Below are positions 3,798-8,781 of a stretch of 14,907 nucleotides of DNA, in pieces (position 1 is the first letter of the stretch; each line of letters starts with the position of its first letter). Below the pieces are notes generated by a model. The model saw only the letters and a list, made by a program, of their open reading frames with translations, was not told the DNA's origin and searched no databases. Position numbers and translations under genes: made by a program. The DNA comes from a virus. Its lineage: Duplodnaviria > Heunggongvirae > Uroviricota > Caudoviricetes. The DNA is taken from the IMG/VR virus record IMGVR_UViG_2695420540_000004. One strand, 5' to 3'.

Positions 3798-3820
3798 CCC
3801 GCCGATGAGCGGGTTTTTTT
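3798..3820 (+). terminator. Intrinsic terminator hairpin; its 3' arm and T-run start tRNA cassette copy 1
   Basis: CCCGC-cgatga-GCGGG followed by TTTTTTT. Confidence 0.6.
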
Positions 3821-3870
3821 ATACCTGAAAAACGGCACAGGACGTTAAACGTGCTGGTGGTCAGATGAGT

Positions 3871-3899
3871 TTGCAGATGTGATGACATATGGTTATTAT
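3871..3899 (+). promoter_or_regulatory. sigma70-like promoter of the tRNA cassette (copy 1)
   Basis: TTGCAG (3871-3876), 17-nt spacer, TATTAT (3894-3899), 9 nt upstream of first tRNA. Confidence 0.5.
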
Positions 3900-3908
3900 T
3901 CTGCCTCC

Positions 3909-3985
3909 GGCCCTTTAGCTCAGTTGGTCAGAGCGAGCGACTCATAATCGCCAGGTCGCTGGTTCAAGTCCAGCAAGGGCCACCA
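3909..3985 (+). tRNA. tRNA-Ile2 (anticodon CAU, lysidine type reading AUA; tRNA-Met not excluded)
   Basis: Cloverleaf by hand: acceptor GGCCCTT/AAGGGCC, anticodon loop CTCATAA, discriminator A, encoded CCA; close to recalled E. coli ileX. Confidence 0.75.
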
Positions 3986-3986
3986 A

Positions 3987-4063
3987 CCACCACTAGCTCA
4001 TCCGGATAGAGCATCAACCTTCTAAGTTGACGGTGCGAGGTTCGAGTCCTCGGTGGTGGGCCA
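3987..4063 (+). tRNA. tRNA-Arg (anticodon UCU, reads AGA)
   Basis: Acceptor CCACCAC/GTGGTGG, D-stem GCTC/GAGC, anticodon stem TCAAC/GTTGA, loop CTTCTAA, T-loop TTCGAGT, discriminator G, CCA encoded. Confidence 0.7.
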
Positions 4064-4065
4064 GC

Positions 4066-4141
4066 GCCGACTTAGCTCAGCAGGCAGAGCAACTGACTTG
4101 TAATCAGTAGGTCACCAGTTCGATTCCGGTAGTCGGCACCA
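4066..4141 (+). tRNA. tRNA-Thr (anticodon UGU, reads ACA)
   Basis: Acceptor GCCGACT/AGTCGGC, anticodon stem ACTGA/TCAGT, loop CTTGTAA, discriminator A, CCA encoded; one A-C mismatch in the T-stem. Confidence 0.6.
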
Positions 4142-4144
4142 TAT

Positions 4145-4219
4145 GCGGGCATCGTATAATGGCTATTACCTCAGCCTTCCAAGCTGATGATGCGGGTTCG
4201 ATTCCCGCTGCCCGCTCCA
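4145..4219 (+). tRNA. tRNA-Gly (anticodon UCC, reads GGA/GGG)
   Basis: Acceptor GCGGGCA/TGCCCGC, anticodon stem TCAGC/GCTGA, loop CTTCCAA, discriminator U typical of Gly, CCA encoded; resembles recalled E. coli glyT. Confidence 0.75.
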
Positions 4220-4666
4220 GCGAGATTTGAGACGAAGGTTGTTATTTGCACTGACACAATATTGTGTGGGAATGTCTGACTCCTTACCATCTCCTGTTCT
4301 GTGATGTTGTTTTGTTGCAGTTCCAGTGCTCTTTTTTCAGCACCAGAATGGTGCATTGTCGGTCAGGTTACGTAGTGAACCTCTGGCAGGGGACTGATGA
4401 TTCATCATTCTGGTGTTGTAAATATCTCTTCGGACAACTTACAAAATATTCTAAGCAAACCCCGGGAACACACTCTTAACTGCCTTGGCTGGCGGTTTTT
4501 TGTACAGCGCTCGGTATGTGTGAGCTGGAAATCAGATTTTGCATGGACTGGAATCATGCTGTTATTTAGGGGCGAAGAACTGGCTTTTTCTTCCGCCTTC
4601 TCACCAGTAACGATTAGAAAAATAATGAAATGCCCCCCTCCGGGGAGGAGGACCGTAGAAAAAAGG
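4220..4666 (+). repeat. Conserved non-coding segment downstream of tRNA cassette (copy A; near-identical to 8782-9228)
   Basis: 447 bp with 3 substitutions versus the copy-3 homologue; only Cys/Trp-rich implausible ORFs; contains perfect palindrome CACAATATTGTG (4255-4266). Confidence 0.8.
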
Positions 4667-4706
4667 NNNNNNNNNNNNNNNNNNNNNNNNNNNNNNNNNN
4701 NNNNNN

Positions 4707-4808
4707 ACATCAATCATCTGTACTCCAATGACTAGTCTAAAAACTAGTATTAAGACTATCACTTATTTAAGTGATACTGGTTGTCTGGAGATTCAGGGGG
4801 CCAGTCTA
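4707..4808 (-). mobile_element. IS2 left-end fragment (IRL and start of orfA/insC), body hidden in adjacent N-run
   Basis: Reverse complement reads tagactggccccctgaatctccagacaacc...gtcattggagtacagATGATTGATGT, matching the recalled IS2 left terminus and InsC start MIDV. Confidence 0.7.
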
Positions 4809-4824
4809 TAAACCTGGAGGCATC

Positions 4825-5037
4825 GTGGAAAAAATAAAGAAACTATTTAGTAGTAAATACGCAGTCATACGTCGTGATGACCTGTCAGTTATAGTCGAAA
4901 TGGATTACTTCCCTGAAACCAAAAAATCAATGATGTATCGTAATGGTCGAAAGGCAATTTTTTTACCGATGAGGGTAAGTGACATTATGGGAAATGATAA
5001 ACTGCTGGATGAATTGCGAGTCAGAGCATCCTGTTAG
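4825..5037 (+). CDS. Hypothetical small phage protein
   Basis: GTG 4825 preceded by GGAGG (4816-4820); 70 aa; start uncertain; ORF-track start 4771 lies inside the IS2 terminal repeat and was not used. Confidence 0.35.
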   Translation: MEKIKKLFSSKYAVIRRDDLSVIVEMDYFPETKKSMMYRNGRKAIFLPMRVSDIMGNDKLLDELRVRASC

Positions 5038-5108
5038 TATTGGCATTAATTCTGGTATACTACATAACGGGCTGAACACCCATTCTACTGCGCCAGCGGA
5101 GAACTACG

Positions 5109-6895: not shown

Positions 6896-6971
6896 GCCGA
6901 CTTAGCTCAGCAGGCAGAGCAACTGACTTGTAATCAGTAGGTCACCAGTTCGATTCCGGTAGTCGGCACCA
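6896..6971 (+). tRNA. tRNA-Thr (anticodon UGU)
   Basis: Identical to 4066-4141. Confidence 0.6.
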
Positions 6972-6974
6972 TAT

Positions 6975-7049
6975 GCGGGCATCGTATAATGGCTATTACC
7001 TCAGCCTTCCAAGCTGATGATGCGGGTTCGATTCCCGCTGCCCGCTCCA
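6975..7049 (+). tRNA. tRNA-Gly (anticodon UCC)
   Basis: Identical to 4145-4219. Confidence 0.75.
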
Positions 7050-7274
7050 GTCAGAGTCTTTCAGTCTGCGATGATGGGAAATCCCGGAGTGACTGAAAGA
7101 CGTTTAAGTTATGAATGATCGCCTTTTTTTGCAAAATTGCTGTGCAGAAATACTAACCTTCGGGCGTGCGATCATTCATAAGCACTCTGCTTTTATTCCG
7201 ATTAACTGTGGGTGGTTTGTTGGATAGAGTGTGAGGTGTACTGGCAATAGCGGACACTACCATTTGTTCTTTTT

Positions 7275-8093
7275 TTAAGCAGCCATCTGATGATATTTTT
7301 CCCTGAAGGCTGCCGGGGAGATATTCCCCAGACGAGAGTGACGACGCTGACGATTGTAGAAAATCTCAATGTATTCCCGTATTACTGAGATGGCTTCATC
7401 CCGGTTATTAAAACGATAGTGGCTCAGGCTCTCATTTTTCAGCGTTCCCCAGAAGCTTTCCATCGGAGCGTTGTCGTAACAGTTACCTTTACGCGACATT
7501 GATGTTTTCAGACCAGACTGCTCCTGTATGACCCGGTAATCGTATGCGCAGTACTGTGAACCTCGATCAGAGTGGTGGATTAGCCCGGCAGGTGGGCGCT
7601 GGCTCCTGAGCGCCATAAACAGGGCTTTACCTGTCAGCTCTTTTGTCATGCGCTCTCCCATGGCGTAGCCGACAATTTCGCACGTATAAACATCTTTGAT
7701 GCCAGCGAGGTACAACCATCCCTCCTGTGTGGCAACATACGTCAGGTCCGCCACCCAGACCTGATTTGGTGCTGTAGGAGCGAACGTCTGGTTCAGCAGA
7801 TTTGGCGCAACTGGCAGATTGTGGTTCGAGTTCGTAGTCGCTCTGAACTTGCGTTTCTGCTTACAGCGTAGCCTTAGCTCCTTACGAAGACGTGCCAGTC
7901 GGTCACGACCAACGATGATGCCATTCTCTGCCAGCTCCGTCTGGAGCCGCCGGGTTCCATATGTTTCGCGAGTGCGGATATGTGCCACCTTAATCTCCAG
8001 TTTTAGCCGCTCATCACTTTGTTTTCTGTCTGAGGGTTCATGCTGTACCCAGTTGTAATAACCGCTCCTGGATACACCAAATACCTGACACAT
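7275..8093 (-). CDS. IS3-family transposase OrfB (DDE integrase core)
   Basis: 272 aa with DDE/rve motifs ...WVADLTYV...HHSDRGSQY...NAPMESFWGTLK...YNRQRRHSRLGNISPAAF. Confidence 0.85.
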   Translation of the reverse strand: MCQVFGVSRSGYYNWVQHEPSDRKQSDERLKLEIKVAHIRTRETYGTRRLQTELAENGIIVGRDRLARLRKELRLRCKQKRKFRATTNSNHNLPVAPNLLNQTFAPTAPNQVWVADLTYVATQEGWLYLAGIKDVYTCEIVGYAMGERMTKELTGKALFMALRSQRPPAGLIHHSDRGSQYCAYDYRVIQEQSGLKTSMSRKGNCYDNAPMESFWGTLKNESLSHYRFNNRDEAISVIREYIEIFYNRQRRHSRLGNISPAAFREKYHQMAA

Positions 8094-8128
8094 CGCTTCA
8101 ATGGGAAATTGTTGTCGCCATTGTTCGA

Positions 8129-8369
8129 TTAACGCGTATTTTTCAGCGACTCCTGTGCAAAATACGCTGTTGCTTTTTTTAATATATCTCGCTCAAGGCG
8201 AGCTTCATTTAACGCCTTACGCAGTTGCAGAATTTCAGATTCCAGTTCAGCCACCGTGCGGGAACCAGGAGTACCGAGCCCTTTTCTGGCGGCGGTAACC
8301 CATTGTCCTAAAGTGCCTTCAGGAAGAGATAATCGGGAAGCGCCTTCACTGATCGAAAGTTGATTTTCA
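8129..8369 (-). CDS. IS3-family transposase OrfA, C-terminal fragment (5'-truncated at the cassette junction)
   Basis: Translates ...LSISEGASRLSLPEGTLGQWVTAARKG...LERDILKKATAYFAQESLKNTR*; HTH and leucine-zipper region typical of IS3 OrfA; no start codon within the fragment. Confidence 0.65.
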
Positions 8370-8432
8370 NGCGGGTTTTTTTATACCTGAAAAACGGCAC
8401 AGGACGTTAAACGTGCTGGTGGTCAGATGAGT

Positions 8433-8461
8433 TTGCAGATGTGATGACATATGGTTATTAT
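8433..8461 (+). promoter_or_regulatory. sigma70-like promoter of the tRNA cassette (copy 3)
   Basis: TTGCAG, 17-nt spacer, TATTAT. Confidence 0.5.
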
Positions 8462-8470
8462 TCTGCCTCC

Positions 8471-8547
8471 GGCCCTTTAGCTCAGTTGGTCAGAGCGAGC
8501 GACTCATAATCGCCAGGTCGCTGGTTCAAGTCCAGCAAGGGCCACCA
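8471..8547 (+). tRNA. tRNA-Ile2 (anticodon CAU; tRNA-Met not excluded)
   Basis: Identical to 3909-3985. Confidence 0.75.
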
Positions 8548-8548
8548 A

Positions 8549-8625
8549 CCACCACTAGCTCATCCGGATAGAGCATCAACCTTCTAAGTTGACGGTGCGA
8601 GGTTCGAGTCCTCGGTGGTGGGCCA
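8549..8625 (+). tRNA. tRNA-Arg (anticodon UCU)
   Basis: Identical to 3987-4063. Confidence 0.7.
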
Positions 8626-8627
8626 GC

Positions 8628-8703
8628 GCCGACTTAGCTCAGCAGGCAGAGCAACTGACTTGTAATCAGTAGGTCACCAGTTCGATTCCGGTAGTCGGCA
8701 CCA
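8628..8703 (+). tRNA. tRNA-Thr (anticodon UGU)
   Basis: Identical to 4066-4141. Confidence 0.6.
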
Positions 8704-8706
8704 TAT

Positions 8707-8781
8707 GCGGGCATCGTATAATGGCTATTACCTCAGCCTTCCAAGCTGATGATGCGGGTTCGATTCCCGCTGCCCGCTCCA
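8707..8781 (+). tRNA. tRNA-Gly (anticodon UCC)
   Basis: Identical to 4145-4219. Confidence 0.75.

Follow-up and report, generated by a model that had tools for sequence, protein, structure and literature searches.

Can a single prophage carry the same promoter-plus-tRNA cassette three times within 5 kb? This is the question raised by the virus record IMGVR_UViG_2695420540_000004 of IMG/VR, a stretch of 14,907 nucleotides (below, the window, always at its full length) in which a short unit with four tRNA genes stands at three places. An earlier note on this DNA, made by a model from the letters alone and here called the sequence-only reading, had offered two explanations, a raised dosage of tRNAs that decode rare codons or an assembly artefact. 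Comparison with closed genomes favored the second: the three copies within 5 kb are very probably a product of scaffolding, contigs of paralogous prophage loci having been interleaved in a draft. The window would then be a short-read scaffold of a Shigella sonnei-type genome rather than one continuous stretch of chromosome, and the source strain probably has two cassette copies.

Three identical copies in a gapped sequence

Exact extension of all three pairs of copies gave a unit of 412 bp, 100% identical at 3809-4220, 6639-7050, and 8371-8782. The sequence-only reading thus had the identity and the three places right but the length, which it put at 411 bp, wrong. To the left of all three copies, the identity of the flanks fell to chance level in pairwise comparison. 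The likeness of copies 1 and 3 continued to the right, over 858 bases in all (3809-4666 versus 8371-9228), with mismatches at offsets 590, 593, and 699.

The sequence-only reading omitted the N runs, so that the gapped nature of the window went unreported. There are five of them, of 40, 1, 130, 38, and 1 N (Table 1), with one or more between any two copies: the 40-N run separates copy 1 from copy 2, and the single N at 8370 separates copy 2 from copy 3. No uninterrupted sequence links any two of the copies.

Two loci of S. sonnei, each with one cassette

For comparison, 21 loci of about 20 kb each, of two kinds that we call X and Y, were taken from closed or megabase-scale S. sonnei assemblies, which were reached by exact-protein look-up. 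Locus X came from strain Ss046 (CP000038.1) and ten further assemblies, and locus Y from ten assemblies. Locus X has the order IS2 (an insertion sequence [IS]), DnaB-RusA-Q-ORF6N, one cassette, spacer A, and holin-lysozyme-Rz-HNH-TerS-TerL-portal, while the order in locus Y is Hok-IS1-DUF1367-YbcO-DUF1133, one cassette, spacer B, IS600, and then, in some strains, holin and lysozyme. A BLAST search with the cassette returned exactly one full copy in 21 of the 21 loci, identical at 412 of 412 positions in both X and Y, a result at odds with the dosage amplification that the sequence-only reading had considered. The distance from the end of the ORF6N gene to the start of the holin gene is 1,181 bp in the closed X loci versus about 5.9 kb in the window.

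X and Y lie about 1.06 Mb apart in CP104423.1 and CP064376.1, the two closed chromosomes for which the positions of both were obtained (Table 1). X is a phiP27-like and Y a DLP12-like remnant, two otherwise unrelated lambdoid backbones. They share the identical cassette and lysis genes that are 97-99% identical, and IS2 and IS600 are numerous in both. We also considered whether the copies might be perfectly identical only through an artefact of a collapsed consensus; this was rejected, and the identity is taken as real biology, because the X and Y cassettes are 412/412 identical in the closed genomes too.

The window was cut at its N runs, and the N-free pieces (c1 to c6 in Table 1) were matched singly, by BLAST counts, to the closed S. 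sonnei loci. Taken in their order along the window, the pieces turned out to come from X, Y, X plus a third remnant that we call Z, Y, a Y-like sequence, and X again, the locus switching at every gap. Relatives free of N showed simple structures. Contigs L048 and L020 consist of c1, spacer A, the lysis genes (holin), and c6, and contig L052 consists of c2, the rest of IS600, the rest of spacer B, c4, and lysozyme.

The joints between the pieces

Real sequence would not fit the gaps as they are sized: in place of 16 nt there is 1 N, 32 nt are represented by 38 N, and at least about 1.2 kb of IS2 by 40 N. The 16 nt behind the N at 10526 read AGACAGCGTGATGTTA in X and CGCCAGCGTGATGCTG in Y. The 100 bases that follow the 40-N gap are an IS2 terminus, and the rest of that element, which we take to be at least about 1.2 kb long, cannot fit into 40 N. 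On the two sides of the 130-N gap, positions 9471-9512 match 9652-9693 with 93% identity, and in contig L001 the two segments align to the same part of a single holin gene; the start of the holin gene is thus present twice in series, as two alleles. The break of IS600 followed by a single N ("...ttgattttcaN") recurs in draft contig L009, where it is joined to another partner, the middle of spacer A, and single-N joints were also present in the independent public drafts L007, L008, L009, L012, L016, and L045.

The junction of IS600 with the cassette was not found in 5,426 complete Escherichia coli genomes, in 55 cassette-bearing IMG/VR contigs, or in the GTDB representative genomes. The junction of spacer A, IS2, and DUF1367 had no full-length match among the same 55 contigs, none of which carried three copies of the cassette and only one of which (L035) carried two.

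The piece identities to X and Y, the gaps, the mismatched gap lengths, and the single-copy structure in closed genomes were observed directly. From them we infer that the N runs are joints: repeat edges or allelic bubbles halted the assembler there, and the scaffolder linked up the pieces. Because X and Y share an identical cassette, near-identical lysis genes, and many copies of IS2 and IS600, the assembler would have broken both loci at repeat edges and at the allelic differences between them; the scaffolder would then have threaded the pieces on one path, namely, X-left, Y-left, a chimera of X and Z, the Y holin, the Y-like lysozyme, and X-right. The suspicion of an artefact of collapsed prophage repeats, voiced in the sequence-only reading, therefore stands as far as the artefact is concerned, but its mechanism would be an interleaving of contigs and a re-use of shared sequence, not a simple collapse.

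Shigella chromosomes carry 229-348 IS copies, IS2 and IS600 among them (PMC7373316), and such an IS-rich genome is a setting where mis-joins of this kind are expected. As in repeat-induced mis-scaffolding of other short-read drafts, the breaks fall at the edges of IS elements and repeats, the gaps are single N or wrongly sized, alleles of one gene stand in series, and the combinations of flanks vary by draft (L008, L013, and L036 versus L015 and L022). Every pairing of left and right cassette flanks occurs among the IMG/VR drafts, including X-left with spacer B and Y-left with spacer A, which is the expected effect of a 412-bp exact repeat on short-read assembly.

The drafts L015 and L022, set against L008, L013, and L036, have X-left with spacer B and IS600 or Y-left with spacer A, pairings reciprocal to those of the closed genomes. 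Most likely, these reciprocal combinations are mis-joins via the 412-bp exact repeat; since the copies are direct repeats, real recombinants between X and Y would entail a deletion or duplication of about 1 Mb. The lysozyme of the window (165 amino acids, RrrD type) was found as the exact protein at up to three prophage loci per closed chromosome (e.g., UGFN01000003.1), and the lysis module is therefore a multi-copy repeat that confounds short-read assembly.

Copy 3 and remnant Z

Copy 3 has no left flank of its own and starts at the edge of the repeat, right after the N. The spacer allele that follows it in piece c3, A', was found in the N-free IMG/VR contig L103, where it is bounded by IS elements at exactly 8916 and 9455 and where no cassette occurs near it, or anywhere in the 14.8-kb locus. 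In six drafts, the A' allele lies on contigs of less than 2 kb. These comparisons indicate that copy 3 is most likely a re-use of the sequence of locus X and not a separate set of genes. Piece c3 would be an alternative-allele branch from Z that was extended leftward, along the part it has in common with X, as far as the divergence of the X and Y flanks at the first base of the repeat.

Remnant Z itself is seen in L103 (reverse-complement coordinates 10991-11530) as a 540-bp spacer fragment between IS elements. Beside this fragment, the holin gene is broken by another IS and the lysozyme gene is preceded by IS2, an extreme case of IS erosion of a lysis region.

Alternative explanations

Several points weigh against a scaffolding artefact. 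The mis-join in the source isolate is argued from comparison with other strains, S. sonnei often rearranges through IS elements, and the source genome may hold a genuine third copy elsewhere. The closed genomes S. flexneri SFBU1023 and E. coli ECMA0423 each have a real pair of copies spaced by about 9 kb, so that a close spacing of cassettes is possible in principle. In these two strains there is also a cassette with an A'-like spacer directly attached (L061 and L062; 99.8%). The 9-kb spacing was found only in SFBU1023, ECMA0423, and contig L035, and the flanks there differ from those of the window. The paired copies (L061 with L060 in SFBU1023, L062 with L059 in ECMA0423, and those of L035 at 2881 and 11919) are on one strand, with few base differences. 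Their layout is a remnant with DUF1133, cassette, A', and a holin start that borders on IS600, followed by a second prophage that runs from DnaB to cassette, spacer B, and holin.

These observations bear on whether the order of the scaffold could be wrong and three dispersed copies nevertheless real, one in X, one in Y, and the third in Z as a cassette followed by A' and a truncated holin gene, in the manner of S. flexneri. SFBU1023 does have three cassette loci (L058, L060, and L061), in one of which DUF1133, cassette, A'-like spacer, and holin start run up to IS600; c3 is free of N from the cassette through A'; and draft contig L007 joins a cassette to A' with 1 mismatch. However, single-N joints are present in L007 too; in L103, IS elements enclose the exact A' allele within a cassette-free locus, and in the drafts this allele sits on the very short contigs; and the cassette half of c3, which equals X at 545 of 545 positions and begins at the repeat edge after an N, lends no independent support. 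We therefore consider three dispersed copies unlikely.

We would put much less trust in the arrangement as written, with three cassettes in 5 kb, for which recombination mediated by IS2 and IS600 together with homologous recombination would have nested Y and Z material in X. The sequence as it stands, the IS-rich, rearranging genomes of Shigella, and the pairs 9 kb apart in S. flexneri and ECMA0423 are in its favor, and if it were true, the dosage of decoders for AUA, AGA, ACA, and GGA would be tripled from one locus. It requires, however, an IS2 cut to 140 bp or less and a truncated IS600 fused to exactly the first shared base of the repeat, and in addition a duplicated holin start, a 15-nt deletion, and a 6-nt insertion that fall exactly on stretches polymorphic between X and Y, each of them marked by N. 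None of its junctions was present in any other assembly searched, and the X and Y loci, 21 of 21, were single-copy. The least credible explanation, to which we give next to no weight, is that the N runs are one-for-one masks over continuous sequence and say nothing about assembly. The description of the genome collection does mention a few stretches masked as N runs, but here the lengths are not preserved, the 16-nt and 32-nt stretches being of these lengths in both X and Y, and similar single-N joints appear in the independent public drafts listed above.

The cassette and its tRNA genes

ARAGORN called 12 of 12 tRNAs over the three copies, with the anticodons CAT, TCT, TGT, and TCC in each, and the covariance model RF00005 of Rfam scored these at 70.5, 56.4, 69.8, and 64.9 bits, respectively, against a gathering score of 29. 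The four tRNA genes per copy named in the sequence-only reading were thereby confirmed, as was their position between Q and the lysis genes, which was borne out by Pfam on the window and by the same order in closed genomes. The sigma70-like promoter that it had proposed, TTGCAG-17-TATTAT, is present at 3870-3899; written as TTTGCA-18-TATTAT it is the same site, a consensus match only, with 9 of 12 positions. In distant variants of the cassette, homology is kept from roughly the -35/-10 region onward (query from 63-84), which is mild support for a promoter of the cassette's own.

Since the first tRNA is identical to the annotated ileZ of phiP27 at 73 of 77 positions and RefSeq labels the gene tRNA-Ile, the CAU tRNA is an ileZ homologue, that is, a tRNA-Ile2 predicted to be of the lysidine type, in agreement with the sequence-only reading. 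The tRNA-Arg(UCU) (3987-4063, with copies at 6817 and 8549) starts with a C1-G72 pair and, at 56 bits, scored lowest among the four tRNAs under the covariance model. Compared with argO of phiP27, it is identical at 46 of 77 positions and altered throughout its stems, and by this measure it is of another lineage.

The borders of the unit are sharp. On the left, identity starts between 3808 and 3809, in the right arm of a terminator-like hairpin, and the corresponding border of copy 2 (6627-6650) has the same stem as X (CCCGC/GCGGG and a T7 run) with another loop (cgatga in X, tttat in Y). On the right, the identity of X and Y ends between 4220 and 4221, one base past the CCA of tRNA-Gly. Together with the 100% identity of the X and Y cassettes, these borders suggest module exchange or homogenization between resident prophages. 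An identical unit with abrupt borders in two otherwise unrelated prophage backbones, with terminator-like sites at 3795-3816 and 4478-4497, fits the description of a moron. The cassette thus appears to behave as a moron-type module in two unrelated backbones, and its expression apart from the late operon is putative.

Known relatives of the cassette

The cassette is a genuine tRNA cluster of prophages, of a kind already annotated, and its site, between Q and the lysis genes, is the classical one. In locus X, it follows Q (PF06530; 2268-2675) and precedes holin, lysozyme, and Rz; in locus Y, it stands between the DUF1133/Q-like gene (5995-6549) and holin. It was 98-100% identical over 412 bp in about 10 complete E. 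coli genomes, among them FDAARGOS_944 (100%) and RMDEC465 (99.8%), and RefSeq annotates the unit in E. coli, enteroinvasive E. coli, and Shigella as tRNA-Ile, tRNA-Arg, tRNA-Thr, and tRNA-Gly, between DUF1133 and the holin gene. The presence of Thr and Gly, which had struck the sequence-only reading as unusual, is thus a feature of the annotated cassette, and it was common to all 21 loci. In the RefSeq genomes there is one copy per locus, and several genomes have two or three dispersed copies. Among further lysis-module loci, the cassette occurred once per locus in 8 of the 10 examined.

The best phage match of the window was the Shiga toxin 2e (Stx2e) phage phiP27 (L091), to which 38% of the window aligned at 87.6% identity. 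phiP27 carries ileZ-argO at the equivalent position, and the two are alike in having a tRNA-Arg(UCU) after an ileZ-type tRNA. The order HNH-TerS-TerL-portal is conserved between X and phiP27; X has no stx operon, and its cassette and spacer A sit where phiP27 has a methyltransferase, ileZ, argO, and stx2e. Stx2 phages of the 933W type carry an ileZ-argN-argO cluster in their late region. Unlike the clusters of lambdoid and Stx phages, which have two or three tRNAs, the cassette has four, with Thr(UGU) and Gly(UCC) added. A literature search around ileZ, argN, and argO found nothing relevant among the papers available.

Phage SfI has tRNA-Asn and tRNA-Thr(UGU) directly downstream of Q, one or both of these are found there in Sf6, ST64T, PS3, and phage 21, and supplementation of rare codons has been proposed as the role of tRNAs downstream of Q (PMC3636060). 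Compared with SfI, Sf6, ST64T, PS3, and phage 21, the cassette has another tRNA complement, and its carriers here are degraded remnants, not inducible phages. The terminase-portal modules of SfI, SfII, and SfIV are 94-95% identical to that of X.

To judge by its position and consensus promoter, the cassette would supply each remnant with a small tRNA operon of its own; in the lysogen, transcription would start at the cassette promoter, and at induction it would come from Q-modified read-through. The rare-codon rationale of the sequence-only reading found no echo in the genes of the window: its late genes contained 1.6 AUA and 1.6 AGA codons per 1000, whereas eight host genes taken from the flanking loci had 10.6 and 3.5, a small sample that makes this weak evidence. 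The same count gave no support for a special need of the window genes for AUA and AGA decoding, there being no enrichment over the host genes.

The case calls for caution with IS-rich draft scaffolds, which can string pieces of paralogous prophages together and so give an apparent gene amplification that is gone in closed genomes; in scans for copy number, N runs at the borders of repeats should be checked first. The biology that remains is ordinary, with no new kind of system, and an identical cassette in two unrelated prophage remnants of S. sonnei would make a tidy example of module exchange or homogenization.

Table 1. Features of the window, with the positions of loci X and Y in two closed chromosomes
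Feature	Position	Strand	Evidence or remark
Cassette copy 1 (locus X)	3809-4220	+	ARAGORN, Rfam, pairwise identity
tRNA-Ile2(CAU), copy 1	3909-3985	+
tRNA-Arg(UCU), copy 1	3987-4063	+
tRNA-Thr(UGU), copy 1	4066-4141	+
tRNA-Gly(UCC), copy 1	4145-4219	+
Cassette copy 2 (locus Y)	6639-7050	+	tRNAs at 6739-6815, 6817-6893, 6896-6971, 6975-7049
Cassette copy 3	8371-8782	+	Starts exactly at the first base common to all copies
Terminator-like hairpin and T-run	3795-3816	+	Cassette identity starts in its right arm (3809)
Spacer A (X allele), tRNAs to holin gene	4221-4666	+	Terminator-like site 4478-4497; unbroken into holin-lysozyme in closed genomes
Scaffold gap, 40 N	4667-4706	.	Joins locus X sequence to IS2 end
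Single-N joint	8370	.	Between IS600 and copy 3; base directly before copy 3
Scaffold gap, 130 N	9513-9642	.	Between two alleles of one holin start
Scaffold gap, 38 N	9804-9841	.	Stands for 32 nt carrying X/Y differences
Single N	10526	.	Stands for a 16-nt stretch differing between X and Y
Piece c1, locus X left	1-4666	+	4666/4666 identical to closed S. sonnei chromosomes (L063/L074 Ss046 CP000038.1, L076, L078-L080, L084); also holds copy 1 and spacer A
IS2 3' end truncating DnaB-like gene of X	1-178	+	96% match to IS2 copies in L063, L069
DnaB (c1)	142-1674	+	Pfam
RusA (c1)	1928-2299	+	Pfam
Q, PF06530 (c1)	2268-2675	+	Pfam
ORF6N protein (c1)	2958-3719	+	Pfam
IS2 terminal 100 bp	4707-4806	.	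100% match to "IS3-like element IS2 family transposase" features; adjoins locus Y at 4807
Piece c2, locus Y left	4807-8369	+	3563/3563 identical to closed S. sonnei chromosomes (L065, L066, L068, L070); also holds copy 2
DUF1367 (c2)	5109-5708		Pfam
YbcO/DUF1364 (c2)	5708-5998		Pfam
DUF1133, Q-like (c2)	5995-6549		Pfam
Spacer B (c2)	7051-7231		181 bp
IS600 (c2)	7232-8369	-	99.8% to annotated IS600 in E. coli O121; transposase open reading frame 7275-8093; ends ~125 bp short at N
Piece c3	8371-9512	+	8371-8915 identical to locus X (545/545); 8916-9455 is A'
Spacer allele A'	8916-9455	+	3 differences from X allele; 100% only to L085 (1.8-kb draft contig) and N-free L103
End of c3	9456-9512	+	Last spacer bases and first ~51 nt of X/Z-type holin gene
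Piece c4, first 161 nt of Y holin gene	9643-9803	+	161/161 to L067, L069, L071, L073, L052; 98% to X
Piece c5, holin end, lysozyme, Rz start	9842-10525	+	1-2 mismatches to Y, 7 to X; Pfam
Lysozyme (c5)	9864-10361	+	Pfam
Piece c6, locus X right	10527-14907	+	4381/4381 identical to closed S. sonnei X loci
Rz (c6)		+	Pfam
HNH (c6)	10850-11200	+	Pfam
TerS (c6)	11313-11816	+	Pfam
TerL (c6)	11813-13546	+	Pfam
Portal (c6)	13649-14896	+	Pfam
Locus X in CP104423.1	912,754-933,125		Same strand as Y
Locus Y in CP104423.1	1,976,980-1,997,579		Same strand as X
Locus X in CP064376.1	98,020-118,391		Same strand as Y
Locus Y in CP064376.1	1,166,934-1,187,533		Same strand as X

Further features of the window

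The long, GTG-start form of the DUF1133 open reading frame was not on record in the exact-protein look-up. The 100-bp end of IS2 that follows the 40-N gap occurs at up to 41 places per E. coli genome. At the site corresponding to 4807, all closed S. sonnei genomes and drafts compared carry other sequence, and the IS2 insertion there is probably strain-specific. In S. sonnei Ss046, an IS3-family transposase pair is called directly upstream of DnaB.

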